Shown here in pieces: positions 15,312-60,335 of a stretch of 64,000 bases of DNA. The translations under genes were made by a program, and so were the position numbers. The notes beneath the pieces were generated by a model that saw nothing but the letters and a program-made list of their open reading frames with translations, made no database searches and was not told the DNA's origin. The stretch is taken from positions 1,031,620-1,095,619 of the forward strand of contig OZ243040.1 of NCBI GenBank assembly GCA_965211995.1, given 5' to 3'. Numbering within the stretch: position 1 is the first letter of the stretch; each line of letters opens with the position of its first letter. The stretch comes from Candidatus Oxydemutatoraceae bacterium. Its GTDB lineage: Bacteria > Pseudomonadota > Gammaproteobacteria > Poriferisulfidales > Oxydemutatoraceae.

Positions 15312-16482
15312 CGCCGTCGCTGGTGAAATACAGCGCGCCGTCAGGCCCGAACGCGACGCCGACAGGCCGCGCGAGGCGCTCGCCCGCGGCGTCCTGAAAG
15401 CCCTCGATCAGGGCCACGACGTCGCCGGCCCTGTCGCCGTTGAAGCGCACCAGCGCAACCCACGGCGGTCGGCGGGTGGCTCTCTCGCCGAAGAAGCCCC
15501 CGTGCGGGCGCGTCGCCCATGAACCGTGCAGTGCGACGGCCGCGTCGCCGGCTTTCACAACCCCCTGAACGCCCCCCTGATCACGCGTTGCAAACGCCAC
15601 GCCCATCGGCCCGTTACGCGCCGGAAACGTCGCGACGGGTGCGGCGGCGTCTTCACGCGGCGGCGTCCCGCCGATGCAGTGGTCACGCTTGATCTCGCGC
15701 CCGTCAAACCAGAACCACGGCATCCCGTGAAACGAGCCTGCTTCCAGGCGCGCGAAATACTCGGGCGGCTGCGCATAGCCGTGATGGTCGGGGCCATGAT
15801 TGCTTGCGTACAACACCCCGCTGCGCGGATGCCAGTCGAAGCCGATCGGGTTGCGCAGACCCGCGGCGTAGGGCTTCCAATACGGCTCCCTGCCTTTTTC
15901 GACCAACACAAACACCCCGCCGCGCCGGTCCTGAAAACGATAACCGTCGTCTAAATACTGATCGCTGCAGTTGCCGCTGATGCCGAGGCTCGCGTAAATC
16001 CGCCGGTCCGGCCCGACGCCGATGCTGCGGCTCGAGTGCCCGCCGCCCGGCGGCAACGCCGCGACCCGCGTGAAGTCGCCGTCTTTGAGAGCACCTTTGG
16101 GAGGGTCGCCCGGACGGTACGGCGCGCGATAAACGCCGTCGTTCTTTGCGACGAACAAGACACCGCTGCGCAACGCAACACCGTGCGGGAAATTGCTGAG
16201 CTCGGCATAGACCGACACGCGCGTATAAGGCGGCTCAATGCGATAGACGCGCCCCGCGTTCGAGCCGGCGAGCAACGCGCCGGTGCCGTCAAACACCATA
16301 AGCCGGGGGCCTTTCATCTCGGCGAGACGTTCGAGCACGTAACCCGCCGGCAGTTTCAACCGCCAAGTCTTGCCGCCGACTTCAAAAGGCTGCTCGGAAT
16401 ACTCAAAGGCCGCGGCGGGCGCGGCGGCGATCACCGCCGCTGCGATGACCGTTCCGAAAACTCTCGACTGCCTCGTGTTCAT
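15274..16482 (-). CDS. PQQ-dependent sugar dehydrogenase (soluble glucose/L-sorbosone dehydrogenase family, beta-propeller)
   Basis: Signal peptide MNTRQSRVFGTVIAAAVIAAAPAAA. Family motifs are present (...NHGPDHHGYAQPPEY..., RNPIGFDWHP). 402 aa. Confidence 0.7.
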   Translation of the reverse strand: MNTRQSRVFGTVIAAAVIAAAPAAAFEYSEQPFEVGGKTWRLKLPAGYVLERLAEMKGPRLMVFDGTGALLAGSNAGRVYRIEPPYTRVSVYAELSNFPHGVALRSGVLFVAKNDGVYRAPYRPGDPPKGALKDGDFTRVAALPPGGGHSSRSIGVGPDRRIYASLGISGNCSDQYLDDGYRFQDRRGGVFVLVEKGREPYWKPYAAGLRNPIGFDWHPRSGVLYASNHGPDHHGYAQPPEYFARLEAGSFHGMPWFWFDGREIKRDHCIGGTPPREDAAAPVATFPARNGPMGVAFATRDQGGVQGVVKAGDAAVALHGSWATRPHGGFFGERATRRPPWVALVRFNGDRAGDVVALIEGFQDAAGERLARPVGVAFGPDGALYFTSDGGVLEGLFRLRRM

Positions 16483-16945
16483 TGCGACGACTTAAAGACA
16501 CTTGATGCCGTCAAAATTATTTCCTTTGAGCAAAGCGCGTTCATCGCGGCACCTCAAAGCAGCGGCGGCGGCGCGTCTGCCGGCCTCAACCCCCCCGCTT
16601 GCGAATACAGTTTAACGGCAATCGCCTCGATTACGCGGGCGAGCGCGTCTTCAATGCCCCCCTCAAGTTGATTGTGCCCGACGCCGTTGACCGCCGCTGC
16701 GATGACCGCCCCGAAAACTTTCGACTGCCTCGTGTTCATCGCGACGACTTAAAGACACTCGATGCCGTCAAAATTATTCCCTTTGAGCAAGCGCGTTCAT
16801 TGCAGCCCCTCAAAGCAACGGCGGCGGCGCGCCTGCCAGCCTCAAACCCCCGCCTGCGAATACAGTTTAACGGCAATCGCCTCGATCACGCGGGCGAGCG
16901 CGTCTTCGATGCCCCTTTCGTGTTGATTGTGCCCGGCGCCGTTGA
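16436..16945. repeat. Roughly 255-bp tandem duplication (2 copies, about 92% identity) of the pip 3' end, the intergenic spacer and the gsdh 5' end
   Basis: The units begin accgccgctgcgatgaccg(t/c)(t/c)ccgaaaact at 16436 and 16691. Copy 1 creates the chimeric ORF 16554..16739 (MNTRQSKVFGAVIAAAV joined to the pip C-terminus GIEDALARVIEAIAVKLYSQAG). Confidence 0.75.
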
Positions 16946-17804
16946 CTATGGTCACCGAACCCTGCGGCCAACGCTGCGCCAGGGCGTAGGCCGACAGCGG
17001 CGGGCACAGCAGGTCGTAGCGCGCTTGCACGATTCCCCCCGGCACATCGCGCAGCCGGCCGGCCTCAGCGAGCAATTGCCCGGGCCGCAAAAAGCAGCCG
17101 TGCGAAAAATAATGCGCCTCCATGCGCGGCGTCGAAGGCCGCGGCCTGTCGTCCGCTGCACGTGCGCTGGCGGCGAGGTCGGGCAAGTCCGGACATAATT
17201 CCGACAACGCACGCTCGTAATCGTGCCATACGTAACTTGCGGGCAGCGACACCGCCGGGTCGTCATCCAGAATACGCCGGTAATACGCCGCGAGCGGCGC
17301 CGGCCTTTCGGCTTCGGGGAGATAAGCGATGAACGCCGCGTACAACTCAGGGTAGATCATCCGCGGCAGCGTGATGAACGCACACTGCAACTCGTCTGCG
17401 CCGCCGAGGAACAGCGAGCGCACGGCGATGCCGGTGGTGCGCTCGGGATGGGCTTCGGCGTAAGCAATCGCGAGCAGCGCACCCCACGAACCGCCGACCA
17501 CGAGCCAGCGTTCAATGCCGAAACGCTCGCGCACCGTCTCGAGGTCGGCGATCAAATCCTGCGTGGTATTGCTCTCGAGGCAGCCCTTCGGCGTGCTGTC
17601 GCCGGCGCCGCGCTGATCGGGCGCGATGATGCGGAAATAGCGCAGATCAAACAGGTCCCACAGCGAGGAATGGCAGCCGCTGCCCGGTCCGCCGTGCAGA
17701 AACACAACGGGGATGCCGTCGGCGTCGCCGTATTCCTTGACCGACAGCGTATGCGGAGGGGCGACGGCGATCTCGTGCCGGTCAACGGGTTCAACTTCCG
17801 GCAT
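16842..17804 (-). CDS. pip: Prolyl aminopeptidase (proline iminopeptidase, S33 alpha/beta hydrolase)
   Basis: MPEVEPVDRHEIAV...VVFLHGGPGSGCH and WLVVGGSWGALLAIAYAEAHPERT (the GGSWG nucleophile elbow). Start chosen at Met 17804; the track ORF extends to 17873. Confidence 0.85.
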   Translation of the reverse strand: MPEVEPVDRHEIAVAPPHTLSVKEYGDADGIPVVFLHGGPGSGCHSSLWDLFDLRYFRIIAPDQRGAGDSTPKGCLESNTTQDLIADLETVRERFGIERWLVVGGSWGALLAIAYAEAHPERTTGIAVRSLFLGGADELQCAFITLPRMIYPELYAAFIAYLPEAERPAPLAAYYRRILDDDPAVSLPASYVWHDYERALSELCPDLPDLAASARAADDRPRPSTPRMEAHYFSHGCFLRPGQLLAEAGRLRDVPGGIVQARYDLLCPPLSAYALAQRWPQGSVTIVNGAGHNQHERGIEDALARVIEAIAVKLYSQAGV

Positions 17805-18912
17805 GGACGACCTTGACCGGCACTTTGAAGCCGATGCGCCGGTAATCGAATCTTTCGTCCCGCCGGTCCGCATCGAGCATCGCGATATTCACGAGCCGCT
17901 CGTGATGGTCGGAGAACTCGCACGCCGGATCCATGTTGGCGGCGTCGCCGGTGATCGCGAACGCCTGGCAACGGCAGCCGCCCCAGTCTATTTCACGGCG
18001 CTCGCAGCCGCGGCACGTCTCGGGCATCCAATCGGTGCCGCGGTATTTCTCGAACGCTGTCGAATGTTGCCAGATATCCTTAAGGCTGCGCTCCTTGAGA
18101 TTGTCGAACTCAAGCGCGGTGATGCTTTCGGCCGCGTGGCACGGCAGCACCTTGCCCGACGGCGTCACGTTCAGGAACTGCCGCGCCCAGCCGCCCATGC
18201 AGGCTTTCGGGCGCCGCGCGTAGTAGTCGGGCACGACGTAGTCAATCACCAGTATGCCCTTGAGGCGCTCGCGTGCCTTCTCGACGACCCCGGTCGCCCA
18301 TTCGAGTTGATCGCGCTTCGGCATCAGCGCCGCGCGGTTGTGATACGCCCAGCCGTAATACTGCACGTGCGCGACTTCAAGACGCGAGGCGCCCATCTCG
18401 ACCGCGAGGTCAATGAGGGACTCGAGGTGGTGGAGGTTCATCTTGTGCACCGGCGCGTTGACGGTCAGCGGCAGGCCGTTGGCTTTGACCGCTTTCGCGA
18501 CCCTGAGCTTTTGCGCGAAACCGTCGTGGTAGCCGCCGATGCGGTTGGCGCTGTCCTCCTCGCTGTCCTGGATGCTGATCTGCACGTGGTCGAGGCCGAG
18601 TTCGGCGAACCGCGCCATGCGCGCGTCATCAATCAGCACCGCCGAGGTGATGAGGTTGGAATACAGTTTGAGTCTGCGGGCGGCGGCGATCAACTCCTCA
18701 AGGTCCTTGCGCACCGCCGGTTCGCCGCCGGAAAAGTGCACCTGCAAGACCCCCATCGCGACGGCCTGCTCGAACGCGTCTATCCATTGCTCGGTGTTGA
18801 GTTCACCGGACGAGCGCTCGAGTTCCATCGGGTTCGAGCAGTACGGACACCGCAAGGGGCAGCGGTGCGTCAATTCGCACAGCATGGACACCGGCATACC
18901 GACGCCGCTCAT
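17791..18912 (-). CDS. pqqE: PQQ biosynthesis radical-SAM protein PqqE
   Basis: MSGVGMPVSMLCELTHRCPLRCPYCSNP is the radical-SAM CxxxCxxC motif, followed by a SPASM Cys-rich C-terminus. About 373 aa from Met 18912. Confidence 0.85.
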   Translation of the reverse strand: MSGVGMPVSMLCELTHRCPLRCPYCSNPMELERSSGELNTEQWIDAFEQAVAMGVLQVHFSGGEPAVRKDLEELIAAARRLKLYSNLITSAVLIDDARMARFAELGLDHVQISIQDSEEDSANRIGGYHDGFAQKLRVAKAVKANGLPLTVNAPVHKMNLHHLESLIDLAVEMGASRLEVAHVQYYGWAYHNRAALMPKRDQLEWATGVVEKARERLKGILVIDYVVPDYYARRPKACMGGWARQFLNVTPSGKVLPCHAAESITALEFDNLKERSLKDIWQHSTAFEKYRGTDWMPETCRGCERREIDWGGCRCQAFAITGDAANMDPACEFSDHHERLVNIAMLDADRRDERFDYRRIGFKVPVKVVHAGS

Positions 18913-19440
18913 GTCCGTAAAAACCCCTTGTCGGCCAAGTCTTGAAACATCGCGGTCATGTCCTTCAATCTCCGCTCCGCGGGCGCGTTGTTGGTCGCGC
19001 TGAGTGTGGCCGGGCGAGGCGGCCATTGCAAGTTTGGATCAGCATCGTTGCACCCATCAGCAAACGCGCTGAATATGGCCGGGCGAGGCGGCCATTGCAA
19101 AAGACGGCGGTGCGTCAATTCACACAGCCCGGACACCGGCAGGCCGACGCCGCTCATGTCCGTAAAAACCCCTTGTCGGCCAGGTCTTGAAACATCGCGG
19201 TCATGTCCTTCAATCTCCGCTCCGCGGGCGCGTTGTTGGTCGCGCTGAGTGTGACCGGGCGAGGCGGCCATTGCAAGTTTGGATCAGCATCGTTGCACCC
19301 ATCAGCAAACGCGCTGAATATGGCCGGGCGACGCGGCCATTGCAAAAGACGGCGGTGCGTCAATTCGCACAGCCCGGACACCGGCAGGCCGACGTCGCTC
19401 ATGTCCGTAAAAACCCCTTGTCGGCCAGGTCTTGAAGCAT
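18900..19440. repeat. 245-bp tandem repeat, about 3 copies, duplicating the pqqD 3' end and pqqE 5' end junction
   Basis: Track ORFs 18909..19271, 19154..19534, 18942..19190 and 19187..19435 are offset by exactly 245 nt. Each copy encodes ...KDMTAMFQDLADKGFLRT (stop) then MSGVGLPVSGLCELTHRRLLQWPPRPA.... There is a nested 24-nt sub-repeat tgcaatggccgcctcgcccggcca. Confidence 0.8.
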
Positions 19441-19671
19441 CGCGGTTATGTCCTTCAATATCTGCTCCGCGGGCGCGTTGTAGGCCGCGCTGAGCTTGGC
19501 GGAAATATCTTTCACCGTTGTGCGCCCGTCGCATAGTTTCAGGGTGTCAAGCGCCGGGGCGTCGGGCTCAAGCAAACGCTCCGGCGCGAGCAGCACCCAG
19601 CGCCCGCGCGTCTCGTCGTGGTGCAGTCTGACGTGGTCGGGCAGAAATGGCATCGAGCCTGCCGACACCAT
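19399..19671 (-). CDS. pqqD: PQQ biosynthesis protein PqqD
   Basis: RWVLLAPERLLEPDAPALDTLKLCDGRTTVKDISAKLSAAYNAPAEQILKDITAMLQDLADKGFL. The start is uncertain; candidates are the Met at 19671 or 19653, and the track ORF extends to 19749. Confidence 0.75.
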   Translation of the reverse strand: MVSAGSMPFLPDHVRLHHDETRGRWVLLAPERLLEPDAPALDTLKLCDGRTTVKDISAKLSAAYNAPAEQILKDITAMLQDLADKGFLRT

Positions 19672-21544: not shown

Positions 21545-21865
21545 GGTTAGTCCTCCATATTACGTTGTTAGCTAACAATCCCCGGAGATTGCCGACGCTT
21601 CAACAGCGCCTTCTCTCACCGAGCACGGCATTATATCTTTTGGGAGGGGAAAGACTCAAGCGGAATCTATGCTGATTTTGAATACATGGTATGGCGAAAT
21701 CCGATAAAATCCGCATCAAACCGCCAAAAATCGCCCTTCGGAGAGGTGTTCATCCCGAGGCGCTCCGGCAGAACCGTTCACGTCGCTCTCTGCGTGGTTG
21801 CATTGGCCTTGCGTAAGGTGGTCGTCCTGAGACGCCTCGGCAGGGGCAACGGGGCGCGCGGGCTA

Positions 21866-21995
21866 AGTCTGAAGTGCGGCGCCCGCCCGTTATCCTCCGG
21901 TGCCCGCCCGCGTCGTTTTCTGGATTCCCCCCGCCGCTGACCGGGCCGACAATACGCCGGGTAGCGGCACTCCCTCCCGGAAAGTGCGGAATCAA
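21866..21995. repeat. MITE-like element copy (partial or degenerate)
   Basis: agtctgaagtgcggcgcccgcccgttatcctccggtgcccgcccgcgtcg...ggaaagtgcgg resembles the left half of the copy at 43115. Confidence 0.4.
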
Positions 21996-29459: not shown

Positions 29460-30518
29460 CTATCTTTCGGTAAGCATCCGTATAGAAAATCTTGCTCCTT
29501 TGCGGCATAACGATTTATTGCCAAATAAAGATGTCTGAGTTTCTGAGTGGCCGCTGTTTTTACCGTTGCCGGATTGTTCATTGAGGGTATTTCGATCCCA
29601 AAAAACGCCGTCGGAATAACCTTGTATCGCTTTGTTTAATTCCGCCATTTCCAGCCGTTTTTCGGCAAGGCAGCTATAGAGTTCATCTATTTCAATGCCC
29701 ACGTAATTTCTTCCCAGCTTTTTTGCAACAACGGAGGTAGTCCCAGAGCCGAGAAAGGGATCAAAGACGACATGACCGGGTTTTGAACTTGCGAGAAGAA
29801 TTTTTGCAATCAACTTCTCCGGTTTCTGAGTCGGATGATCCGTGTTTTCCGGCATCGACCAAAAAGGAATCGTGATATCGGTCCAAATGTTTGATGGGTG
29901 CGTCAGGCGGTATTTTCCGTTTTCCTCCTCGCTCCAATCTTTGGCTTTTCCAGAATCATCGCGATAAGGAGCGATGACCTTTCTTTTCATTTTTACCGCC
30001 GCAACGTTAAAATAATAATCTTTTGACATCGTGCAAAACCACATATCCTCAGAGTTGTTTTTCCAGTTTGTTTTTGCGCCGCGCCCTTTCTCTCTTTCAA
30101 ACGTTATGCGGTTTTGAATTTCAAAATGCTTCCCGGCAACATTGAAAATCCCCCCGGACGATTTCCAATCCCCGCAAATGTAAACAGAGGCCGTCGGCTT
30201 CAACAGGCGCACCATTTTGCTTATCCATGAATCCAGCCAGTTCTCGTATTTTTCCGATTCCATTTCCTTAAACACGGCAAGATTGAAAGTTTTATTGAGA
30301 TTATATGGAGGATCGACAAAGGCAATATCCACAAACTTATCAGGCAAATAGTCCAACACTTCAAAAGTATCCTGCTGTATTGTTTTATTCAAGACCTCAC
30401 CGACGGAAGCCGGCCCGTCAATTTTGACAAGCCGTTTCTTGTATTTAGCCCAGTCGTTATCGCTTAAATCAATGGTGCGATTGCGCGGGGCTTTTTCTTT
30501 TGGCTTTTCACTATTCAC
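29460..30518 (-). CDS. Orphan beta-class DNA methyltransferase (N6-adenine or N4-cytosine), low GC
   Basis: Motif IV DPPY (FVDPPYN) precedes motif I FDPFLGSGTT, which is the beta-class order. AT-rich codon usage. No adjacent restriction endonuclease ORF. Confidence 0.8.
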   Translation of the reverse strand: MNSEKPKEKAPRNRTIDLSDNDWAKYKKRLVKIDGPASVGEVLNKTIQQDTFEVLDYLPDKFVDIAFVDPPYNLNKTFNLAVFKEMESEKYENWLDSWISKMVRLLKPTASVYICGDWKSSGGIFNVAGKHFEIQNRITFEREKGRGAKTNWKNNSEDMWFCTMSKDYYFNVAAVKMKRKVIAPYRDDSGKAKDWSEEENGKYRLTHPSNIWTDITIPFWSMPENTDHPTQKPEKLIAKILLASSKPGHVVFDPFLGSGTTSVVAKKLGRNYVGIEIDELYSCLAEKRLEMAELNKAIQGYSDGVFWDRNTLNEQSGNGKNSGHSETQTSLFGNKSLCRKGARFSIRMLTER

Positions 30519-30546: not shown

Positions 30547-30634
30547 TGGCGGAGAGGGAGGGATTCGAACCCCCGGACCGTCGCCGGTCAACGGTTTTCA
30601 AGACCGCCGCTTTAGACCACTCAGCCACCTCTCC
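30547..30634 (-). tRNA. tRNA-Ser: tRNA-Ser (anticodon UGA), class II with long variable arm
   Basis: RC is GGAGAGGTGGCTGAGTGGTCTAAAGCGGCGGTCTTGAAAACCGTTGACCGGCGACGGTCCGGGGGTTCGAATCCCTCCCTCTCCGCCA. It has a 7-bp acceptor stem, a 3-bp D stem, anticodon loop CT-TGA-AA, a 16-nt variable arm, a TPsiC loop TTCGAAT and an encoded CCA. Confidence 0.85.
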
Positions 30635-31537: not shown

Positions 31538-32356
31538 ATGCAAAGGCCCGCTTCGGCGGGCCTTTTTCTGAGCCCCCCACAAGCGGCGCTCACCGGTCGC
31601 CTCAACGACGCCTCTCCTTCAATCCGCCTCGGGTTTGACTCGGTAAAAAATTTATTCTTGAAACCGGGAAAGAATTACGGCTGGCCGCACGTATTGTACG
31701 GAACGAACTACGGGCAACACATCTGGCCGCCGAGCGCGAGGCAAGACGAACACCAGGGGTATGAACAGCCCGCGTTTGTCTGGACTCCCTCGATCGGCGT
31801 ATCCAACCTGATCGCAGTGGAGGGGGATTTATTTCCGCTGTGGAAAAACGACCTGCTGGTCGGCTCACTCAAAAAGATGACGCTGTTCCGGCTGCAAATG
31901 CATGAGCACCGCGTCATCTACAGCGAGCCCATTAAAATTGGGCGGAGAATCCGGGATCTGACGGAAACCCCCAACGGGGAAATTTTTATCTGGACGGACG
32001 CACAAAGCATGATCCGGCTGCGCCCGGCGGACGCCTTGCCGAAAAAGGGCGAAACCATTGCCGCAGCCGGCAAGCGGCTGTTTTTCAAATGTATCGGCTG
32101 CCACAGCATCAAGCCGAACGTCCCGCACGGCATCGGACCCAATTTGCACAGCGTCTATAACAGCCCGATTGCACGGCAGGCCGGATACAACTACTCGCCG
32201 GCGCTGCGAGCCAGGTCCGCACAGCGGTGGACTCGCGCAAACCTCGATCTTTTCCTGCAAGACCCCGCGGCTTTCGCTCCCGGCACCACCATGCAAATAA
32301 ACACCCCCGACGACTACGAGCGCCGGGCGCTGCTGCATCACCTGCAAAACAATTGA
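31538..32356 (+). pseudogene. 5'-truncated remnant of a PQQ-dependent sugar dehydrogenase fused to a cytochrome c domain
   Basis: It begins mid-propeller (...GKNYGWPHVLYGTNYG...), so about 250 aa of the GSDH domain are missing. The C-terminus is a class-I cytochrome c (KCIGCHSIKPNVPHGIGPNLHSV...). It has no signal peptide and starts 21 nt after the upstream gene's stop. Confidence 0.5.
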
Positions 32357-39830: not shown

Positions 39831-39899
39831 CCGGCGGCGCACGCGGCCTTGTTGCCGATCTTAAGGCTTCAATTGGCGGATGCCGCCCGTTGCAATGCG

Positions 39900-42958: not shown

Positions 42959-43114
42959 CACCGCCGCCGCCCCCGCGTCGCCCGCCTGAATCAAGGCCGC
43001 AGCGAAGCGAGCCGGAAGGGAAAAGCCGGAAGATCAATCCGCGGATTTTGCAAATGAACGCAACTCGGGAGCGTGGCAAAACCGGGCGGCGCGGCGGAGT
43101 CGCCGGATCCACAA

Positions 43115-43345: not shown

Positions 43346-43394
43346 CGGCGCATCCCCGCTGAGCGCAGCAAACCTTACCCGCCTGCGTCATCTG

Positions 43395-49461: not shown

Positions 49462-49670
49462 GGCACCGCCCTTAAAATCAAACCCGCCGGTAAAACCGTG
49501 CAATGATTCTTGCGCCGGCACGTGAAGCATTGGATTAAAATCAAACCCGCTGATACATCTTCGCAACGATTCTTTCGTTAGCGCGTGAAACACTTGCTCA
49601 AAATCAAAACCGCCGGTAACACTTCGCAACAGCGATCCCCGCTTATTCGCAACGCCCGAAAATCAGGGGC
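49462..49670. repeat. Roughly 63-bp tandem repeat, about 3.5 copies, upstream of the adhesin gene
   Basis: The unit starts aaaatcaaa(a/c)ccgc(c/t)g(g/a)ta.....tt.gcaa.g.ttc. Track ORF 49357..49629 shows the resulting repeated GGFDF peptide, which is spurious. Confidence 0.6.
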
Positions 49671-50106
49671 CGGACAAAGATTTGAGCAGCCCCAGACAGG
49701 CGTCTTCGACAAAGTCCAGCACCGTGTCGTATCCGCGCCCCCCGTCCGTGAACAGCACCTCCTCCGCGTCGAACGCGCGTGAGTATTCCATCAGCAGGCC
49801 GGCGCGCGCGCCCTGCGCCCGCACGCACAGCAAGTTGTCCTTGTCGGCGGCGAGAATCAGATCAAACCGCGCGGCGGCGGTGAACGGACACGAGCGCAGT
49901 CCCGACAGGTCATAGCCGCGCAACGCCGCCGTCGCGCACATCTTCGGGTCCGGCAGGCAACCCGGCAATGCGTGCGTGCCCGCCGAAGCCACTCGCATCG
50001 CAAGCCCCGCGTTCTCGCTCAGATAACGAAACACCGCCTCGGCCGCAATCGAGCGGCAGATATTCTGCGAGCAGACGAACAACACGGATCGAGCGGACTT
50101 AAACAT
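49663..50106 (-). CDS. Low-molecular-weight protein-tyrosine phosphatase (or arsenate-reductase-like LMW-PTP)
   Basis: MFKSARSVLFVCSQNICRS is the CX5R P-loop. 147 aa from Met 50106; the 227 N-terminal codons of the track ORF are antisense to epmA and spurious. Confidence 0.8.
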   Translation of the reverse strand: MFKSARSVLFVCSQNICRSIAAEAVFRYLSENAGLAMRVASAGTHALPGCLPDPKMCATAALRGYDLSGLRSCPFTAAARFDLILAADKDNLLCVRAQGARAGLLMEYSRAFDAEEVLFTDGGRGYDTVLDFVEDACLGLLKSLSGP

Positions 50107-50195
50107 CGGCCCAGTCGAAGCGGCAGAGACTCTGCGGACAAACGAACAACACGGATCGGGTGGACTCAGGCATCGGCCCAGTCGAAAGCAAGTGT
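50075..50195. repeat. Roughly 65-bp direct duplication of the epmA stop / PTP start junction
   Basis: acgaacaacacggatcg(a/g)g(c/t)ggact(t/c)a(a/g)(a/g)catcggcccagtcgaa appears twice. One copy keeps the epmA TGA and the other keeps the PTP ATG. Confidence 0.65.
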
Positions 50196-51711: not shown

Positions 51712-52722
51712 TTGATGAACGACCGCTGGCAACAAGAATTGCAAAACTCGGTCACGCGCGTCGCCGATCTTTTGCACGCGCTCGAACTCGACCCCGACGA
51801 GTTGCCGTTCGCCCGCGATATCAAAGACTTCCCGACGCGGGTGCCGCGCCCTTATCTCGCGCGCATACGCAAGCGCGACGCCGGCGACCCGCTGCTGCGC
51901 CAGGTGCTGCCGGTCGCCGACGAGACCATTCATTCCCCCGGATACGCCGTTGATCCGGTCGGCGATCTCGGCGCGCACCGCGGCGGCGGCGTCCTGCACA
52001 AATACCACGGCCGGGTGCTGCTGGTCGTCACCGGCGCCTGCGCGATCCACTGCCGCTACTGCTTCCGCCGCCACTTCCCCTACGCCGGGCACGCGCTCGC
52101 ACGCAGCCTCGACCGCGCGCTCGCCTACGTCGCGCGCGACGCGAGCGTCGAGGAAGTCATTCTGAGCGGCGGCGACCCGCTGAGCCTGAGCAACCCGCGG
52201 CTGTTTGAGTTGTGCCGGCGGATCGAAAGCATCGCCCACGTACGGCGCATCCGCATACACACCCGCCTGCCGATCGTCGTGCCGTCGCGTCTGGAAGACG
52301 AGTTATGCAACTGGCTCAACCGCCGCCCGAAACGCTACCTCGTGGTCTTCCACATCAACCATCCGGCGGAGATCGCAACCGACGTCGAGCGCGCGGTATC
52401 ACGCCTGACGGCGCCGACGCTGATGAACCAGGCGGTGCTGCTCAAAGGCGTGAACGACGACGCCCGCACCCTCGCCGACCTGAGCCGCAAGTGCTTCGGC
52501 GCGGGCATTTTGCCGTATTACCTGCACCTGCTCGACCGCGTGCGGGGCGCGGCGCATTTCGAAGTCGACGCGGCGCGCGCGCAGGCGCTGATGCGCGAAC
52601 TTGCAACCCTGCTTCCGGGGTATCTCGTACCGCGGCTTGCACGCGACGACGGCGGCCCCTCAAAACAATTCCCGCTGCAACACGCCGGCAGTGAACGCCC
52701 GCGTCCTTCGCGCACAACTTGA
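51712..52722 (+). CDS. epmB: EF-P beta-lysylation protein EpmB (lysine 2,3-aminomutase-like radical SAM, YjeK)
   Basis: CAIHCRYCFRR is the radical-SAM motif. The C-terminus LPGYLVPRLARDDGGPSKQFPL matches the YjeK end. It is divergent from efp-epmA. Confidence 0.88.
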   Translation: MMNDRWQQELQNSVTRVADLLHALELDPDELPFARDIKDFPTRVPRPYLARIRKRDAGDPLLRQVLPVADETIHSPGYAVDPVGDLGAHRGGGVLHKYHGRVLLVVTGACAIHCRYCFRRHFPYAGHALARSLDRALAYVARDASVEEVILSGGDPLSLSNPRLFELCRRIESIAHVRRIRIHTRLPIVVPSRLEDELCNWLNRRPKRYLVVFHINHPAEIATDVERAVSRLTAPTLMNQAVLLKGVNDDARTLADLSRKCFGAGILPYYLHLLDRVRGAAHFEVDAARAQALMRELATLLPGYLVPRLARDDGGPSKQFPLQHAGSERPRPSRTT

Positions 52723-52880
52723 TCCACCCGTGCCGAGGCTTGCACGCGACGACGGCGGCCCTTCAAAACAATTCCCGCTGCAACACGCCGGCAGTGAACG
52801 CCCGCGTCCTTCGCGCACAACTTGATCCACCCGTGCCGAGGCTTGCACGCGACGACGGCGGCTCTTCAAAGCAGTCCTCG
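52632..52880. repeat. 102-bp tandem repeat, about 2.5 copies, duplicating the last roughly 30 codons of epmB
   Basis: cttgcacgcgacgacggcgg.c.ttcaaaacaattcccgctgcaacacgccggcagtgaacgcccgcgtccttcgcgcacaacttgatccacccgtgccgagg is repeated. Track ORFs 52601..52825 and 52719..53468 re-encode ...VPRLARDDGGPSKQ.... Confidence 0.7.
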
Positions 52881-52924
52881 GATTCAAGCCTGAACACAAC
52901 GTCTGCCCGTCATCCTCTTGTGCC

Positions 52925-53080
52925 TGTCCGCCTCATCTGTGGATTTATCTTTGACCGGGCTGTCTTGTTTGAGCCTCAGGCGATGCCGCGCAACGCTTGC
53001 CTTCTTCCTTTTACCGCACTCCGGACTGAAAGAAGTCCCCGCTCCCGCATCAACCGCAAGCCGTCGTCGAAAGACGCCGG
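52925..53080. repeat. Dispersed repeat family 2, copy B
   Basis: cgcctcatctgtggatttatctttgacc...cttgtttgagcctcaggcgatgccgcgc...gcactccggactgaaag matches 24545-24760. Confidence 0.5.
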
Positions 53081-53173
53081 CGCGACCGCCGCGAGCCTGG
53101 TCCAAACCCGCCCCCCAATGCTTGTCGGCAACGAATTGCCGGCCGGCGGGAACTTTGCGTCACTTGGCCCGGA

Positions 53174-54058
53174 TTACCTCCGCTCGAGTGCGCCGATGCG
53201 CTCGGCGAGCGGTGGATGGCTCATGAACAGGCGCTTCAGCCCCGTAGCGCCGCCGCCCCTGATGCCGAAAGCCGCGAACTGCTTCGGCAGGTCGGGGGTT
53301 TCGTGCACCGCTTGCAGGCGCTTGAGCGCGGCGATCATCCGGTCGCGTCCCGCGAGGCGCGCACCGCCCTCGTCGGCACGGAATTCACGGCGGCGTGAAA
53401 ACCACATAACGATAGTCGTCGCCAGGATCGACAAGACGATCTGCGCGAGGATCGAAGTGATGAAGTAGGCCGGACCGTAGCCGTGTTGCGATCTGAACAC
53501 CACGCGGCTCACGATATGGCCGATGATGCGCGACAGGAAAATCACGAACGTATTGATCACGCCCTGGATCAGGGTCAGCGTCACCATATCGCCGTTGGCG
53601 ACGTGGCTGATCTCGTGGCCGAGCACCGCCTCGACCTCGCCGGGTTCCAGCGTGTGCAACAGCCCCTCGCTGACCGCGACCAGCGCCTTGTTGCGGAACA
53701 TCCCGGTTGCGAACGCGTTCGGCTGCGACGACGGAAAAACCCCGACTTCGGGCCTCGCGATGCCCGCGGCTTCGGCCTGCCGTGCGACCGTATCAAGCAG
53801 CCATTTTTCCTTGCCGCCGCCCGGCCCGGCGATGACTCTGACACCCAGCGAGCGCTTCGCCATCGCCTTCGACATCGCGAGCGAAATAAAGGCGCCGGAC
53901 ATGCCGAACGCCGCCGAGATGATCAGCAAACCGGTCAGGTTGAGATCCGATCCGCTTCTTAAGAGCAGGTTTTCAACGCCGAACAGGCTCAGCGTAATGT
54001 TCAATACGAACAAAACCGCGAGGTTGGTCGCCATCAGCAAAGCGATCCTTGTCAACAT
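53174..54058 (-). CDS. htpX: Protease HtpX (M48 zinc metalloprotease, membrane)
   Basis: HEISHVANGD is HExxH. Four TM segments. 294 aa. Confidence 0.9.
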   Translation of the reverse strand: MLTRIALLMATNLAVLFVLNITLSLFGVENLLLRSGSDLNLTGLLIISAAFGMSGAFISLAMSKAMAKRSLGVRVIAGPGGGKEKWLLDTVARQAEAAGIARPEVGVFPSSQPNAFATGMFRNKALVAVSEGLLHTLEPGEVEAVLGHEISHVANGDMVTLTLIQGVINTFVIFLSRIIGHIVSRVVFRSQHGYGPAYFITSILAQIVLSILATTIVMWFSRRREFRADEGGARLAGRDRMIAALKRLQAVHETPDLPKQFAAFGIRGGGATGLKRLFMSHPPLAERIGALERR

Positions 54059-54640
54059 AGCGCATCCTCCACTTCGAGACGGTCAATGCTGCGGCAGCTC
54101 TGAGGCAACTTGTGCCCGCGCCGCAATGTTCAATACGAACAAAACCGCGAGGTTGGTCGCCATCAGCAAAGCGATCCTTGTCAACATAGCGCGTCCTCCA
54201 CTCCGAGACGGTCAACGCTGCGGCAGCCCTGAGGCATCTTGCGCCCGCGCCGCAATGTTCAACACGAACAAAACCGCGAGATCAGTCGCCATCAGCAAAG
54301 CGATCCTCATCAGCATAGCGCGTCCTCCACTTCGAGACGGTCAACGCTGCGGCAGCCCTGAGGCAACTTGTGCCCGCGCCGCAATGTTCAACACGAACAA
54401 AACCGCGAGATCAGTCGCCATCAGCAAAGCGATCCTCATCAGCATAGCGCGTCCTCCACTTCGAGACGGTCAACGCTGCGGCAGCCCTGAGGCAACTTGT
54501 GCCCGCGCCGCAATGTTCAACACGAACAAAACCGCGAGATCAGTCGCCATCAGCAAAGCGATCCTCGTCAGCATAGCGCGTCCTCCACTTCGAGACGGTC
54601 AACTTTGCGGCAGCCCTGAGGCAACTTGCGCCCGCGCTGC
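54057..54640. repeat. 129-bp (43-codon) tandem repeat, about 4.5 copies, duplicating the htpX promoter-proximal region and first roughly 20 codons
   Basis: The unit boundaries, marked by atagcgcgtcctccact(t/c)cgagacgg, are at 54057, 54186, 54315, 54444 and 54573. On the minus strand each unit contains ATG CTG ATG AGG ATC GCT TTG CTG ATG GCG ACT GAT CTC GCG GTT TTG TTC GTG TTG AAC ATT GCG ... TGA. That is a 34-aa [37 protein letters not shown], which is a copy of the HtpX TM1. Confidence 0.8.
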
Positions 54641-57156
54641 CCGCGCCGGCCGCGGTAATGCGCCAGATCGGCGAACGCGATGCGCTTGAGGCGGCGCCCG
54701 GCATGCACGATCAGCGTCTGTCCCGGCTGCACGCAGATCGCGGCCGCAAGGCTTTCCTCGCCTGAAGCCAGGCGGCTTTTCGGTATATTGATCAACTTGT
54801 TGCCCCGCCCCTTTGACAATACCGGAATCTCCGCCAGCGGCACGACCAGCATATAGCCTGCGCTGCCGACCGCCACGGCGAGACCGGTCTTCGGGTCGCC
54901 CGCGGACGCCGCGGCGAGCGCGTGCGCGCCTTGGGGCACGCTCAACACTTGCTTGCCGGCGCGCTTGTGCGAGACGGTGTCGCCGAAACGCACCAGCAGT
55001 GCATAGCCGTGGCTGCTCGCGAGCAGATGCAAGCGGTCGCCGCCGCCGGTCATCACGCCGACGAAGTTCGTCGCTTCCGACAATGAAAAACAACTGCTGA
55101 GCGGCTCGCCCTGCCCGCGCGGCGACGGCAGGCTGCGCGCAGGCAGGCTGTAGCAACGGCCGCGCCCGTCGAGGAAAACCGCGTCGCGGCGGTTGTCGCC
55201 GCGCGCGATCGCGAGGAAAGCGTCTTTGGTGCGGTATTCAAGCGCCGCGGCGTCAACCTCGTGCCCGCGCACCACGCGCACCCACCCCATCCTCGACAAT
55301 ACGATCGAAAGATTTTCGACCGGCACCAACTGTTCATGTTTAAGTTCCTCGGCCGCGCCGCGCGCGACCAGCCGGGTGCGCCGTTCGTCGCCGCAGGCTG
55401 CGACGTCCGCCTTGAGTTCTTTTTTGACCAGGGTCTTCAGGCGCCGCGCCGACTTCAGGTACGCTTCGACGTCTTTTTTCTGCGCGCTCAGTCTCCGCTG
55501 CTCCTCGCGGATACGGATTTCCTCGAGTTTCGACAACTGGCGCAAACGGATCTCGAGGACCGCGCGCACCTGCACCTCGCTGAGCTTGAAGCGGCGCATC
55601 AACTCGGCCCCGGGGTCGTCCTCCTTGCGAATGATCGCGATCACCGCATCGAGATTGAGATACACGATCATCAGCCCGCCGAGTTCTTCGAGACGGCGGT
55701 TGATCTTAGCGAGGCGCCACGCGAGGCGGCGGCGGACCGTGTCCTTCCTGAAGTCGAGCCATTCGCCGAGCAGTGCCTTGAGCGTTTTGACCTGCGGCTT
55801 GCCGTCGTTGCCGATCACGTTGAAATTGACGCGGCGGTTGTATTCGAGGTCGGTGGTCGCGAACAGGTGCGACATCAGGCGCTCGCGGTCAACGCGCTTG
55901 CCGCGCGGCACCAGCACGAGCCTGACCGGATGCTCCTGGTCGGACTCGTCGCGCAGGTCCTCGATCCACGGCAATTTTTTGTCCCTGACCTGCGCCGCGA
56001 TCTGCTCGAGCACGCGCGTCGCCGACACCTGGTACGGCAGCGAAGTGATTACGATCTCGCCCCGCTCGACAACGCAGGTCGCGCGGATGCGGATCATCCC
56101 GGCGCCGTGCTCGTAGATCCCGCGCACGTCCCCGGTGTCGCTGACAATCTCGGCGCCGCCCGGAAAATCCGGCCCGCGCACGTCTTCAAGCAACTCGGCC
56201 AGCGTCGCTTTGGGCGAGTCGAGCAGGCGGATGCACGCCGCCGCCACTTCGCCGAGGTTGTGCGGCGGGACATCGGTCGCCATGCCGACGGCGATGCCCG
56301 AGGTGCCGTTCAGCAACAGGTTCGGCAGCCGCGCCGGCAGGCGCACGGGCTCCTCGAGCGTGCCGTCGAAGTTCGTGCGCCAGTCGGTCGTGCCCTGATC
56401 CAACTCTTCGGTCAGCGTCTTGGCGTAGGCGCTCAGGCGCGCTTCGGTGTAGCGCATCGCCGCGAACGACTTGGGGTTGTCAATCGAGCCCCAGTTGCCC
56501 TGTCCGTCGATCAGCGGGTAGCGGTAACCGAAAGGCTGCGCCATCAGCACCATCGCCTCGTAGCAGGCGGCGTCGCCGTGCGGGTGATACTTGCCGATCA
56601 CGTCGCCGACCGTGCGTGCGGACTTTTTCGGTTTGGCGCCGGCGTTGAGTCCGAGTTCGGACATCGCATAAACGATCCGCCGCTGCACCGGCTTCAGACC
56701 ATCGCCGAGAGCGGGCAGCGCGCGGTCGAGCACGACGTACATCGAGTAGTCGAGGTAGGCGCGCTCGGCGAACTCGACCAGCGGAACCCGGCTGGCGGGG
56801 GCGGCGGGGACGGCTTGCCGCGGGGGCTTGCCGCCGCCTTTCTTGACCGGGGCGCCGGCTTCAAGTTTGAACGCCGGCCCGTCGTCCTCTTGCGTCCGTC
56901 CGCGGCGTCTTTTGTATTTCCCCCCACCGCCCGGGCTGCGCCCGGCCGACTTTCCCTCAAGGGGAGAGTGTTCTTCAGCGGCCTGCGCTTTTTTCTTTGG
57001 CCGCACTTCGGACTGGAAGTTGGCGGCTTCCTTTACGACAGATTTCTTTGCGCCGGCTTTAGCGGATTTTTTCTTCGCGGCCACCTTGACGGATTTTTTC
57101 TTCGCGGCTTCCTTAGCGGCTCTCCGGACGGCGCCTTTTGCAACGACTCTTGCCAC
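54568..57156 (-). CDS. parC: DNA topoisomerase IV subunit A (ParC), with an unusual N-terminal extension
   Basis: The conserved core starts ...[44 protein letters not shown] at about 56800 and carries the active-site Tyr region ...[10 protein letters not shown]. There is no ATG/GTG/TTG between the MITE copy and the core. The only in-frame starts are a GTG inside the MITE (about 56990) or the GTG at 57156, which lies 5 nt after the HAD-gene stop. The latter would add an Ala/Lys-rich tail, [22 protein letters not shown]. Confidence 0.8.
56865..57020. repeat. MITE-like element copy (inverted orientation relative to the copy at 58155) inside the parC 5' region
   Basis: ggcttcaagtttgaacgcc...gtcttttgtatttcccccc...ccctcaagggg...ccgcacttcggactgg. 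Confidence 0.6.
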
Positions 57157-57160: not shown

Positions 57161-58090
57161 TCACTCGCTCAAATGACCGGGCGCAGTGCCGACGCTGCTT
57201 TCGAGTTGGCGCGCGCGCCGCTCGACGATGCCGTCGGCGACGTCTCTCGCGGTGCGCATCAGCCAGCGCCAGGTCGGCGTATCGGTGCGGTAGTCGGCCG
57301 GCCCCATCGCATCTACGCGCCGCTCCTTGTGCAGCAGGTCGTAGGCCTGGTCGTAGGCGAGTTCGGAGTGCGGATTGTGCACCGCGTAAGTGCGTCCGCC
57401 GAGGCGCTTGACCACCGAAAACACCGGCACGTCGCTCGGCCCGTCGGCGACGTAGATCATCTGCGGGATCGGCACGCGCCGCTCGCTTTCCTCCATGCGC
57501 GCGTTCACGTCGATGCCGGGCTCGACGTTGACGCCCTTGTTGATCTCGAAAATCGCGCGCGTCTTGGTGGTGTGATCGAGCACGTAGCCGATCGAAGACA
57601 AGCGCGTGCGCCCGTCGCCGCCCCGCTCGTCGAGCAACTCGCAGCCCCACACCCCGTCGAGATGACCGTGCAACGCGCTGCCGGCGATCATCTGCCGCAG
57701 GCCGGTGCTGACGACGTAGTGCTCGACCTTGATGTCGTGCGCTTGGTACGGCTCGCGTTCCAGCACCCGCTTCATCTCGTCGAAAAATTCCGGCAACCCC
57801 GGATAGAACTCAAGTTCGGCGCCGAGCGCGCGCAATTTGTCGTTGTTCAGCCCCTCGAAGACGCCGCGGCGCACGTAATCGAGAATATGACTCAGGTACA
57901 GCACCTCGTTGGACGTCTGATCGCAACCCTGCTCCTTGTACTTATCGGGCAGTTGATTGACTTCGTCCCAGAAAGCGCGCTCCTCAATGCCGTAGGCGGC
58001 GAACAGCGGCGCCTGCATGTGACCCGGAATCAGGGTCTTGTCAAAATCCCAGATCACCGCGACGATGTTTTGCGAAAAAAACTGCGTCAT
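57161..58090 (-). CDS. HAD-superfamily hydrolase
   Basis: Motif [13 protein letters not shown] (DxDxT). 309 aa. It lies between parE and parC and is bracketed by an inverted MITE pair. Confidence 0.65.
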
Positions 58091-58154
58091 GCCGGAGCCT
58101 GCGCGAGATTGCCCCTGCCGGCGAGCCGTCCGCGGCGCCCGTAGCCGGGAATTT

Positions 58155-58320
58155 CAACTGCCAGTCCGAAGCGCGGCCAACGGCAGAAAAGCAGGCCGCC
58201 GAAAATCACTTTTTCCCTGAGGGGAAGCCGGCCGGGCGCAGTCCGGCCGGTGGGGGGAAATACAAAAGACGCCACGGACGGACGCAAGAGGACGGCGGGA
58301 CGGCGTTCAAACTTGAATCC
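58155..58320. repeat. MITE-like element copy, flanked by a roughly 155-bp divergent duplication of the parE 3' end / HAD 5' end junction (57985-58140 against 58340-58500)
   Basis: ccagtccgaagcgcgg...ccctgaggggaagccggccggg...ggtggggggaaatacaaaagacgcc...cgttcaaacttgaatcc. The upstream duplicate retains the first roughly 35 HAD codons (MTRLFSQTLVAVIRDFGKTLIPG...) fused to nothing. Confidence 0.6.
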
Positions 58321-58445
58321 GGCGCCCCGGAAAGCGCGCTCCCCGAAGCCGCAGGCGGCGAACAGCGGCGCCTGCACGCAGCCCGGGATCAGGGTCTTGC
58401 CGAAATCCCGGATCACCGCGACGAGGGTTTGCGAAAACAACCGCG

Positions 58446-60335
58446 TCATGCCAGATCCTGCGCGAGGTTGCCCTTGTCGGCGAGCCATGCGCGGCGCTCG
58501 GACGCACGCTTGCGTGCAAGCAGCATGTCCATCGTCTCCTCTTCGGCGGCGCCCGCTGCGTGCACCAGTTGCAGCAGGCAGCGGCGCTCCACGATCATCG
58601 TGGATTCCCTGAGTTGTTGCGGGTTCATCTCGCCGAGTCCCTTGAAGCGCGTGATCCGCGCGCGCGCCGCGTCCCTCTGCGTAAGACCCGCGAGGCAGCG
58701 GTCGCGCTCCTCTTCGTTGTTCGCGTAGTGCACGTCCTTGCCGACGTCGATGCGAAACAGCGGCGGCACCGCGACGTAGGTGTGCCCGGCGGCGACCAGT
58801 TTCGGAAAGTGCCTGACGAACAGCGCGGCGAGCAAAGTCGAGATGTGCAGCCCGTCGGCGTCGGCGTCGGCGAGGATGCAAACCTTGCCGTAACGCAGCC
58901 CGGCGAGGTCGTCGCTGCCGGGCTTGACCCCGATCGCGGTCGCGATGTCGTGGATCTCCTGCGATGCGAGCACGTCGTCGGTGGCGGCCTCCCAGGTGTT
59001 CATGATCTTGCCGCGCAGCGGCATCACCGCTTGGAAGCGCCGGTCGCGCGCCTGCCGCGCCGAGCCGCCCGCCGAGTCGCCCTCGACCAGGAACAACTCG
59101 TTCTCGCCGAGGTCGCTCGAAGCGCAGTCGGCGAGTTTGCCCGGCAGCGCGAGGTTCAGGAACATGCTTTTGCGCGGCTGCTTTGCGTTCTTGCGGCGGC
59201 GCTTGTGCGCGTTCGCGAGCGCGAGTTCGACGATGCGTCCGCCCTCGCGCGGGTGGCGGTTCAGCCACAGGCTCAGCGCGTCTTTGGTCACGCTTTGCAC
59301 CACCGCGGCCGCTTCCTTGTGGGTCAGGCGCTCCTTGGTCTGGCCCGCGAACTGCGGATTTTCGATCTTCAAGGACAGCAGGTAGCAGACGTTCGACCAA
59401 AAGTCGTCGGGCGCCGGCTTGACGTTCTTCGGCGTCAATTCATGGAACTGCATGAACTCGCGCACCGCCTCGACAACCCCCGCGCGCAGGCCGCTGACGT
59501 GGCTGCCGCCCTGCGGCGTCGGCACCAGATTGACGTAACTCTCGGCGGGCGGCGGCGCGTCCTCGCCGACCCAGTTCAAGCACCACGCCAGTTCGTGGTC
59601 CTCGCCCGCGTGGCTGTCGCTGATGTTCTCGCCGAGCAGCAAGACGCACCCGTCGGCGAGCGAGTTGAAGTATTCGGGCAGCCCGTTCTGATAGCACCAC
59701 TCGCTGCGGTCGCCGCCGCGCTCGTCTTCGAGCGTGATGCGCAAGCCCGGACACAGCACCGCCTTTGCGCGCAGCAACCGGCGCAGACGTTTGCGGTCGA
59801 AGCGCACGCTGTCGAAAAACTCAGGGTCGGGGCGGAAGCGGATAGCCGAGCCCGAGGCGCGTTTTGCCGTCTTGCCGACCTCTGCGAGCGGACCCGTCGC
59901 CTTGCCGCCGCTGAAAGCCATGTTGTATTCCTTGCCGCCGCGCTTGATCCAGATCTCGAGGTGCTGCGACAAGGCGTTGACCACCGACACGCCGACCCCG
60001 TGCAGGCCGCCGGCGTAGCGGTAATGGCGGTCCGAGAACTTGCCGCCCGAATGCAGCGTCGTCAAAATCACCTCGACGCCGGAGCATTTGCGCTGAGGGT
60101 GCTTATCCACCGGCATGCCGCGCCCGTCGTCGCGCACGCTCAGCGAGTGGTCGCGGTGCAGCGTGATCTCGATCACGCCGGCGTGTCCCGCCAGCGCTTC
60201 ATCCACGCTATTATCTATGACTTCCTGCGCAAGATGGTCGGGGCTCGCGGTGTCGGTGTACATGCTCGGGCGCTTTCGCACCGGGTCGAGCCCGCTCAGG
60301 ATCTCGATTGAAGCCGCATCGTAGGAGGCGTGCAT
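58446..60335 (-). CDS. parE: DNA topoisomerase IV subunit B (ParE)
   Basis: MHASYDAASIEILSGLDPVRKRPSMYTDT...EVIDNSVDEA are the GHKL ATPase motifs. A Toprim EGDSAGGS is present. 630 aa, matching ParE size rather than GyrB. The 50 extra N-terminal codons in the track are Arg-rich junk. Confidence 0.88.
   Translation of the reverse strand: MHASYDAASIEILSGLDPVRKRPSMYTDTASPDHLAQEVIDNSVDEALAGHAGVIEITLHRDHSLSVRDDGRGMPVDKHPQRKCSGVEVILTTLHSGGKFSDRHYRYAGGLHGVGVSVVNALSQHLEIWIKRGGKEYNMAFSGGKATGPLAEVGKTAKRASGSAIRFRPDPEFFDSVRFDRKRLRRLLRAKAVLCPGLRITLEDERGGDRSEWCYQNGLPEYFNSLADGCVLLLGENISDSHAGEDHELAWCLNWVGEDAPPPAESYVNLVPTPQGGSHVSGLRAGVVEAVREFMQFHELTPKNVKPAPDDFWSNVCYLLSLKIENPQFAGQTKERLTHKEAAAVVQSVTKDALSLWLNRHPREGGRIVELALANAHKRRRKNAKQPRKSMFLNLALPGKLADCASSDLGENELFLVEGDSAGGSARQARDRRFQAVMPLRGKIMNTWEAATDDVLASQEIHDIATAIGVKPGSDDLAGLRYGKVCILADADADGLHISTLLAALFVRHFPKLVAAGHTYVAVPPLFRIDVGKDVHYANNEEERDRCLAGLTQRDAARARITRFKGLGEMNPQQLRESTMIVERRCLLQLVHAAGAAEEETMDMLLARKRASERRAWLADKGNLAQDLA

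Follow-up and report, generated by a model that had tools for sequence, protein, structure and literature searches.

We analysed a 64,000-nt stretch of DNA (the window) from a Candidatus Oxydemutatoraceae bacterium (Gammaproteobacteria; GenBank assembly GCA_965211995.1, contig OZ243040.1, positions 1,031,620 to 1,095,619 of the forward strand), in which short segments of DNA have been duplicated in tandem across the ends of genes. The source has 62% G+C and methylotroph-like genes (those for dehydrogenases dependent on pyrroloquinoline quinone, the pqq genes and the gene for formate-tetrahydrofolate ligase). Genes supported by Pfam scans are pqqB-C-D-E, a proline-iminopeptidase-type hydrolase gene (pip), a glucose/sorbosone dehydrogenase gene (gsdh), serS, a Na+/H+ exchanger gene, epmA, efp, epmB, a low-molecular-weight phosphotyrosine phosphatase gene (PTP), htpX, parE, a HAD hydrolase gene and parC. 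Self-blastn, Tandem Repeats Finder (TRF) and a repeat finder were used for detection and yielded, in the interval from 16.4 to 58.5 kb, 12 local direct duplications in which a unit of 50-261 nt occurs in 2-5 copies at 76-97% identity (Table 1). Every locus listed in a preliminary description of the window was recovered by these tools with small corrections: the copies, put there at 85-95% identity, span the wider range just given, and an array listed with a 58-bp unit exists but has a period of 50 nt.

With regard to position, ten of the 12 events lie across a start or stop codon and the other two wholly in intergenic DNA; no out-of-frame duplication occurs within a gene. The ends of two genes are included in five of the ten boundary events (pip/gsdh, pqqD/E, epmA/PTP, parC/htpX and parE/HAD) and a single gene end in the other five (cytochrome c, ankyrin-repeat gene, serS, epmB and exchanger). 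A common plan is seen when the arrays are read in gene orientation, the outermost copies being continuous with the intact genes and the inner copies representing decoy gene ends; such decoy 5' or 3' ends are present at ten loci. The affected genes are all intact and have the same length as their orthologues (HtpX 294 aa, PTP 151, EpmA 302, HAD 309, PqqE 373, exchanger 396 and SerS 426).

The pip/gsdh duplication illustrates the plan. Its unit comprises the final ~105 nt of pip, the stop codon, a spacer of ~110 nt and the initial ~45 nt of gsdh; in gene orientation copy 1 has the real pip end and a decoy gsdh start, and copy 2 a decoy pip end and the real gsdh start. At pqqD/E the unit consists of 143 nt of pqqD 3' and pqqE 5' sequence around an ATGA overlap plus 102 nt of non-pqq sequence, the first copy holding the real pqqD end and the last the real pqqE start (18912). 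Within the 102-nt part a 36-nt direct repeat recurs 69 nt apart, its second copy extending 9 nt into the pqqD-derived part. The duplicated cytochrome c 3' end, a locus missing from the preliminary description, has its decoy in the spacer ahead of a gene for a major facilitator superfamily transporter. The ankyrin-repeat array had been described as an intergenic array of 155 bp; it is there, although its unit is 157 nt and includes the last 30 nt of the gene and the stop codon together with 127 nt downstream, and it is therefore not purely intergenic. At serS the decoy is formed by 39606-39673 and ~39837-39860, which are split by a miniature inverted-repeat transposable element (MITE), and is followed by a 45-nt spacer; the real serS end begins at 39897, with its stop at 39900. 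The exchanger unit covers the promoter-proximal region and the first ~210 nt of the gene, whose real start is the ATG at 41768. Its two decoys, which contain indels, are 91-92% alike and 77-79% like the real copy. At epmB the stop codon of the relatives reads CAA in the window, giving a 17-codon C-terminal extension that is part of the 103-nt unit. The htpX array has the 129-nt unit originally described, in 5.0 rather than 4.5 copies, and also takes in part of parC, which lies upstream of htpX: in the unit the final ~63 nt of parC are joined to the initial 66 nt of htpX. Copy 1 keeps the real end of parC and the last copy the real start of htpX (54058), and four decoy starts each open an open reading frame (ORF) of 34 codons.

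Table 1. Duplications found in the window, with element copies and other features mentioned in the text listed below them
Feature	Unit and copies	Position	Strand	Identity between copies
pip 3'/gsdh 5' tandem duplication	257 nt x2	16433-16946	-	91%
pqqD 3'/pqqE 5' array	245 nt x2.6	18862-19494	-	92-96%
Cytochrome c 3' end, ending at stop codon	117 nt x2	34601-34834	-	~80-83%
Ankyrin-repeat gene 3' array	157 nt x2.8	39136-39588	+	90-95%
serS 3' end duplication	64 nt + ~22 nt	39606-39990	-	86%
Na+/H+ exchanger 5' end	261-nt unit, ~3 nested copies	41266-41996	+	77-92%
Intergenic array between convergent exchanger and adhesin genes, adjoining MITE copies	50 nt x3.7	43390-43596	.	86-92%
Intergenic array, PTP stop to adhesin start	63 nt x2.5	49472-49630	.	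76%
epmA stop/PTP start tandem duplication	67 nt x2.2	50039-50186	-	79-84%
epmB 3' end and stop, array	103 nt x2.4	52626-52870	+	97%
parC 3'/htpX 5' array	129 nt x5.0	53993-54637	-	90-100%
parE stop/HAD start duplication, MITE at junction	175-184 nt x2	57964-58497	-	86%
102-nt part of pqqD/E unit, two copies		18996-19100 and 19241-19345		
C-terminal extension of epmB		52670-52722		
Site of missing symporter-type gene between htpX and epmB		52870-53174		
In-frame repeat in parC tail	27 nt	57043-57106		
MITE in serS decoy		39674-39836		
MITE at parE/HAD junction		58155-58322		
MITE in addA		62996-63173	+	
MITE in parC		56855-57022	-	
Further MITE copy, full or partial		43205-43340	-	
Further MITE copy, full or partial		43102-43162		
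Further MITE copy, full or partial		21865-21936		
Further MITE copy, full or partial		1904-1966		
Repeat outside the main range	37 nt, 71 nt apart	14713-14819		97%
Low-G+C island		8000-12800		
AAA_15/AAA_21 ATPase ORF		8247-9668		
476-aa ORF		11296-12726		
DNA methylase gene		29460-30518		
tRNA-Ser		30547-30634		
ORF with partial GSDH match		31538-32356		

The density of these events was compared with a background set of 1.387 Mb of gammaproteobacterial loci fetched with EpmA and put through the same pipeline. The controls gave 26 clusters, equivalent to 1.2 per 64 kb, against 12 in the window (Poisson P ~6e-9), which bears out the earlier statement that the events are far above chance. Coverage by tandem repeats (TRF 2/7/7) is 3.7% in the window, 6.8% in a related locus (L082, see below) and 0.27% in the controls; published values with identical settings are 0.38% for Escherichia coli and 6.3% of the genome for Ehrlichia ruminantium (PMC3287509). 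The observation is thus confirmed and statistically strong, and the duplication load in this bacterium is about ten times the usual number.

A search with EpmA of a collection of species-representative genomes gave only relatives at 49% identity or less, and homologues derived from the Joint Genome Institute (JGI) in protein searches were at most 74% identical. Exact-match look-ups with proteins of the window recovered neither a copy of its contig nor another strain of the species. The protein searches also found metagenome-assembled relatives at 77-89% protein identity, from which loci L081-L088 were compared; L083 and L087 are from one genome (genome C) and L084, L086 and L088 from another (genome D). 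The gene order addA, parE, HAD, parC, htpX, epmB, efp, epmA, PTP is conserved in the relatives. A Na+/sulfate-citrate symporter-type gene lies between htpX and epmB in L082, L083 and L084, and the window lacks it, with only ~300 nt left. The relatives show the single-copy ancestral state for parE/HAD, parC/htpX, epmA/PTP, epmB, pqqD/E, cytochrome c and serS/exchanger. In L083 and L084 the undisturbed junctions overlap by 4 nt (ATGA) at parE/HAD, by 7 nt at parC/htpX (also single-copy with this overlap in L082) and by 8 nt, ATGCCTGA, at epmA/PTP. L085 and L086 each have the pqqD/E junction once, and in L085 the two genes overlap by 4 nt (ATGA). Comparison of orthologous loci, which the preliminary description had called for, thus yielded the ancestral junctions directly, and its idea of an overlapping stop and start separated by duplication holds at four junctions (parE/HAD, pqqD/E, parC/htpX and epmA/PTP). 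The cytochrome c end is likewise single-copy in L085, followed by a 51-nt spacer, and the spacer between serS and the exchanger is 54-174 nt in L081, L087 and L088, where the exchanger 5' end is present once, versus 587 nt in the window.

Duplications of the same kind, mostly elsewhere, were found in some of the relatives. L082, which is closest to the window (HtpX 86%), has six events in 21 kb at other boundaries, among them the addA 5' end (157 nt x2), the 5' end of a sulfate/citrate-type transporter gene (370 nt x2) and the cysS 3' end (161 nt x2), and at parE/HAD a complex array composed of parE 3' fragments only; an in-frame 93-nt repeat in parC is listed with them. L085 (PqqE 89%) has one event in 11.6 kb, and genome D (HtpX 83%) has three in 63 kb: pqqE 3'/pip 5' in L086 (295 nt x2, 99% identity), the junction of a DUF447 gene and the 4HFCP_synth gene downstream of it (212 nt x3), and a third event located upstream of a Bax1-I gene. 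Genome C and L081 (HtpX 83% and 79%) have none in 63 kb, compared with 18 events in 85 kb for the window and L082 together (P ~5e-5). As the events affect different loci in each genome and form a continuum of ages, the process is ongoing and, as the preliminary description had supposed, specific to the lineage; the trait is restricted to a clade and is not confined to the window. Some decoys are annotated as short genes in the relatives, namely a 78-aa 'DNA_gyraseB_C' ORF and a 138-aa 'CitMHS' ORF in L082 (5969-6429 and 10965-11381) and 70-71-aa '4HFCP_synth' ORFs called from decoy fragments in L088 (1521-1945), and the duplications therefore inflate gene counts.

The position of the events at gene ends, which the preliminary description had taken as a clue to mechanism, was compared with a null model in which segments of the 12 observed lengths were placed at random on the gene maps of duplication-free relatives (92.5-95% coding, with spacers mostly of 0-130 nt). 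Random placement puts 83% of segments wholly within genes, 15% across a gene end and 2% in purely intergenic DNA. Under uniform placement the probability that none of the 12 would be intragenic is 3.7e-10, so that the avoidance of gene interiors is real. Once only non-intragenic events are considered, the number expected at boundaries is 10.2 of 12 and the number observed is 10. Tandem repeats that do lie within genes all have periods divisible by 3 (pfk 12; parC 27; adhesin 6, 9 and 12; addA 21 and 12; parC of L082 93), and the repeats of Ig-like domains in the adhesin (270-318 nt) are in frame. The parC repeat of L082 (7385-7729; 93 nt x3.7, in frame) encodes a lysine/alanine-rich, histone H1-like N-terminal tail; the corresponding tail in the window is shorter and basic and contains the 27-nt repeat, and those of L083 and L084 are short. 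The boundary and intergenic units (257, 245, 157, 261, 50, 67, 103 etc.) show no constraint to a period of three. Boundary placement therefore arises because frame-breaking duplications inside genes have been removed from a genome that is nearly all coding; it needs no targeting and is the geometry of the duplications that survive.

Taken as a whole, we think it probable that the pattern results from frequent and long-retained microhomology-mediated tandem duplication filtered by purifying selection. On this reading the lineage would duplicate short segments (50-370 nt) in tandem unusually often and keep the extra copies for a long time. Duplications would arise at any site, when the template slips or is switched between short direct repeats, and existing arrays would enlarge through further slippage or unequal exchange. 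Those that shift the frame inside a gene would be eliminated by purifying selection, and one that spans a start or stop would be harmless as its outer copies stay joined to the remainders of the genes and only a decoy end is left in the middle. In a genome that is ~93-95% coding, with spacers of 0-100 nt, nearly every tolerated duplication would then include a gene end, and overlapping genes would be pulled apart.

Formation might instead be directed to boundaries, for example at sites of transcription or translation termination, or the separation of coupled overlapping genes might itself have been selected. Such explanations would account for the four boundary events, out of ten, that split pairs overlapping by 4-8 nt in the relatives, and for junctions hit more than once: parE/HAD was duplicated independently in the window and L082, and pqqE/pip independently in L085 and L086. 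However, repeated hits at one junction are expected when permissive sites are few, and the boundary count already matches the expectation from the filter alone (10 vs 10.2). Half of the boundary events concern a single gene end, which makes the selection for uncoupling proposed in the preliminary description unnecessary. Breakpoints lie anywhere from 0 to ~210 nt inside genes, and the decoys decay with indels and show no sign of maintenance. We therefore regard boundary-directed or adaptive duplication as unlikely.

As to how the duplications form, the youngest event, the 295-nt duplication of L086, has a perfect 9-nt direct repeat, GGTCGAACG, at the end of pqqE and again 295 nt downstream in pip, as is typical of slippage or of a template switch between microhomologies. 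The L085 event has a 7-nt microhomology, and the single-copy epmA/PTP orthologues already carry an imperfect direct repeat of ~15 nt, 67 nt apart, that matches the junction in the window. Slippage at microhomologies is accordingly the one of the three causes suggested in the preliminary description that the junctions favour; neither repair after MITE excision nor selection for uncoupling is supported. Older junctions have decayed, and microhomology, being clear at some junctions and 0-2 nt at others, is shown for part of the events only. Nine of the 12 loci are pure head-to-tail arrays in register, the exceptions being the 102-nt filler at pqqD/E and the MITEs at two loci. No motif common to the duplication junctions was found, an all-against-all blastn of 18 units from the window and the relatives revealed no shared sequence except the orthologous parE overlap, and a search of Rfam at the gathering score returned tRNA-Ser only and no curated RNA family for the units. 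In the 50-nt array and the MITE, structure was limited to short hairpins (z-scores -0.1 and -1.3). Arrays grow locally after the first duplication, as the htpX array shows: its copies 3 and 4 do not differ, and some derived states are common to copies 1 and 2.

Mismatches between copies are 74% transitions (70 of 94), occur in both directions and at all four bases and are accompanied by indels in some decoys, and the differences are neutral decay rather than directed mutagenesis. A diversity-generating retroelement was considered and rejected, since the spectrum is ordinary and not restricted to adenines in one of the copies; no reverse transcriptase was found when the main ORFs of the window were scanned against Pfam. 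Divergence of up to 24% means that decoy DNA is long-lived here, and this persistence suggests that deletion pressure or selection is weak as well as formation frequent.

The divergence might alternatively reflect the distance of a donor rather than age, if diverged homologous fragments from related strains had been added by illegitimate recombination. For the oldest events the identity between copies (77-86%) is about that to the orthologues, and the pqqE decoy motif TTGCAATGGCCG is nearer to L085 than the resident copy is, both of which are consistent with import. Younger copies, on the other hand, are each other's closest relatives (90-100% to each other versus 74-84% to any orthologue), indicating that they arose within this genome. 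The arrays are moreover exactly in register, head to tail, and those of 3-5 copies with identical neighbours (100% for htpX copies 3 and 4) require local amplification. Imported DNA thus seems very unlikely as the general source of the copies.

The MITE family provides a further candidate cause. The element is 163-178 nt long, with imperfect terminal inverted repeats of ~18 nt and a central hairpin, and one copy lies within ~10 nt of the junction of the two parE/HAD copies; another is within the serS duplication. The duplications might on this basis be long target-site duplications made on insertion, or scars of repair after excision as the preliminary description had proposed. Yet at serS the element, which had been thought to lie between the copies, interrupts the decoy instead, ten of the 12 loci are free of the element and purely head to tail, unit lengths vary from 50 to 370 nt, three other MITE copies (in addA, in parC and at 43.2 kb) have no flanking duplication, and L082, L085, L086 and L088 carry duplications with no MITE detected in them. 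A by-product of the element is therefore very improbable, marginally more so than import, and it is simplest to suppose that decoy DNA offers a MITE one of few sites for harmless insertion. A resemblance to transposon target-site duplication, in which direct repeats flank an element, is thus seen only at parE/HAD, and the absence of any element at ten of 12 loci, the unit lengths of 50-370 nt and the presence of up to five copies all differ from it. Two of these copies of the element lie within genes. That in addA is a clean in-frame insertion of 60 aa in the UvrD_C region that is absent from the orthologues in L082, L083 and L084, and that in parC is in frame in the basic N-terminal tail and uses the same reading frame of the element as addA; both genes stay open. 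In this they resemble the Rickettsia palindromic elements. The family was looked for in the related loci L081-L084 and not detected.

Collapsed or expanded repeats, or strain variants joined in tandem, might be suspected because the source is a metagenome-assembled contig judged from the assembly alone, but an assembly artefact is hardly credible when copies differ by 3-24% with indels and a MITE insertion, arrays are no longer than 730 nt, like events occur in four independent assemblies, and the avoidance of coding sequence (P = 4e-10) and the frame-kept intragenic repeats are beyond any assembler.

Several points weigh against microhomology-mediated duplication under a selective filter as a full account. 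The null model is based on 12 events and the data comprise the 64-kb window, out of a contig of 1.94 Mb, and ~190 kb of related DNA, and the explanation names no cause of the raised rate or the retention. Microhomology is 0-2 nt at pip/gsdh, in the htpX array, at addA and the 370-nt unit of L082 and in L088, and two of these low-microhomology junctions (L082 370 nt x2 and the htpX array) belong to fairly young events; slippage would be the only formation route under this account, and a second, such as end-joining of staggered breaks, may have operated as well. Copy numbers of 2.4, 2.6 and 2.9 require additional nested events or later deletions. Local alignment of the 102-nt part of the pqqD/E unit with the continuation of pqqE (window genome, L085 and L086) was no better than alignment of shuffled sequences, and no match was found elsewhere. 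For the oldest events, with 76-84% identity between copies and the same to orthologues, an origin within the genome is assumed. The excess itself would presumably come both from a raised rate of formation and from slow deletion or weak selection.

The process has precedents, and the earlier statement that nothing of the kind had been described as a systematic feature was too strong. Microhomology-mediated tandem duplication has been reported to arise de novo in bacteria, where long GC-rich microhomology promotes it and where its products are scarce in essential genes, except for those that keep the frame or lie close to the 3' end (PMC8639346; bioRxiv 10.64898/2026.02.28.708716). The present events share with it the head-to-tail copies of ancestral single-copy segments, the growth of arrays and, at some junctions, microhomologies of 9, 7 and ~15 nt. 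They differ in that several junctions have 0-2 nt, in that they are fixed and old (up to 24% diverged) rather than subclonal and reversible, and in a density far higher than in typical bacteria. There is also a likeness to tandem duplication followed by random loss in animal mitochondria, where duplications across gene boundaries in a compact genome with abutting genes yield redundant partial copies that degenerate into pseudogene spacers; the mitochondrial events usually include whole genes and change their order, whereas here only gene ends are duplicated and the order is kept.

For the outcome at genome scale the present case most resembles Ehrlichia ruminantium, the closest precedent, which has 201 tandem repeats (mean period 139 nt; 92% identity) occupying 6.3% of its genome (PMC3287509), and long intergenic regions in which non-coding tandem repeats expand and contract (PMC10710844). 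Both have several percent of long-period tandem repeats (3.7% in the window, as a 64-kb sample of its genome, and 6.8% in L082), and truncated gene fragments generated by the repeats are represented here by the decoys at ten loci. In E. ruminantium most of the 32 pseudogenes reported by Collins et al. in 2005 are said to be truncated gene fragments tied to repeats and were reportedly ascribed to ongoing duplication. That organism is an AT-rich obligate intracellular alphaproteobacterium with 62-64% coding DNA, unlike the gammaproteobacterium studied here with its 62% G+C. To our knowledge a filter at gene ends and the separation of overlapping pairs are not part of the E. ruminantium genome papers (Collins et al. 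2005, PNAS 102:838; Frutos et al. 2006, J Bacteriol 188:2533). A keyword search of the literature found no paper describing boundary-located tandem duplications in bacteria, the filter reading or the separation of overlapping genes by this route; the two last nevertheless follow directly from known principles.

A few other features of the window were noted. Outside the main range of duplications a 37-nt repeat, judged by eye, adjoins what appears to be the end of an IS3-type transposase remnant. A low-G+C island (47% vs ~62%), which was probably acquired and may be related to defence, contains an ORF for an AAA_15/AAA_21 ATPase and a 476-aa ORF for which Pfam gave no match. One ORF, whose match to the GSDH profile is limited to positions 211-326 and is followed by a cytochrome c domain, looks like a truncated or rearranged dehydrogenase gene; it lies near tRNA-Ser and a DNA methylase gene.

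The findings illustrate in quantitative terms that mutations arising without any target can, once selection has acted on them, show a conspicuous pattern of position, and they provide a concrete route by which overlapping bacterial genes are separated and intergenic DNA is made from coding sequence, with the ancestral state documented for four pairs. In practical terms, decoy starts and ends mislead gene callers, as seen with the short parE, CitMHS and 4HFCP_synth ORFs of L082 and L088. The findings also reveal a clade of gammaproteobacteria with genomes of ~2 Mb whose repeat load matches that of E. ruminantium, the classic outlier, in a very different lineage. It is conceivable, if rather doubtful, that the clade has a heritable 'duplicator' state, for example through altered processing of Okazaki fragments (Pol I 5' nuclease) or loss of a single-strand exonuclease. 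If so, short tandem duplication would be raised by an order of magnitude, intergenic DNA would be created continuously and overlapping operon genes separated, and small decoy ORFs, such as the four 34-codon ORFs of the htpX leader, would be seeded that might take on regulatory or coding functions. The clade would in that case offer a natural setting for observing how spacers, leaders and new ORFs emerge from coding sequence. A clade-wide comparison of gene content could reveal which factors govern how often short tandem duplications form in bacteria, or how long the copies are kept.

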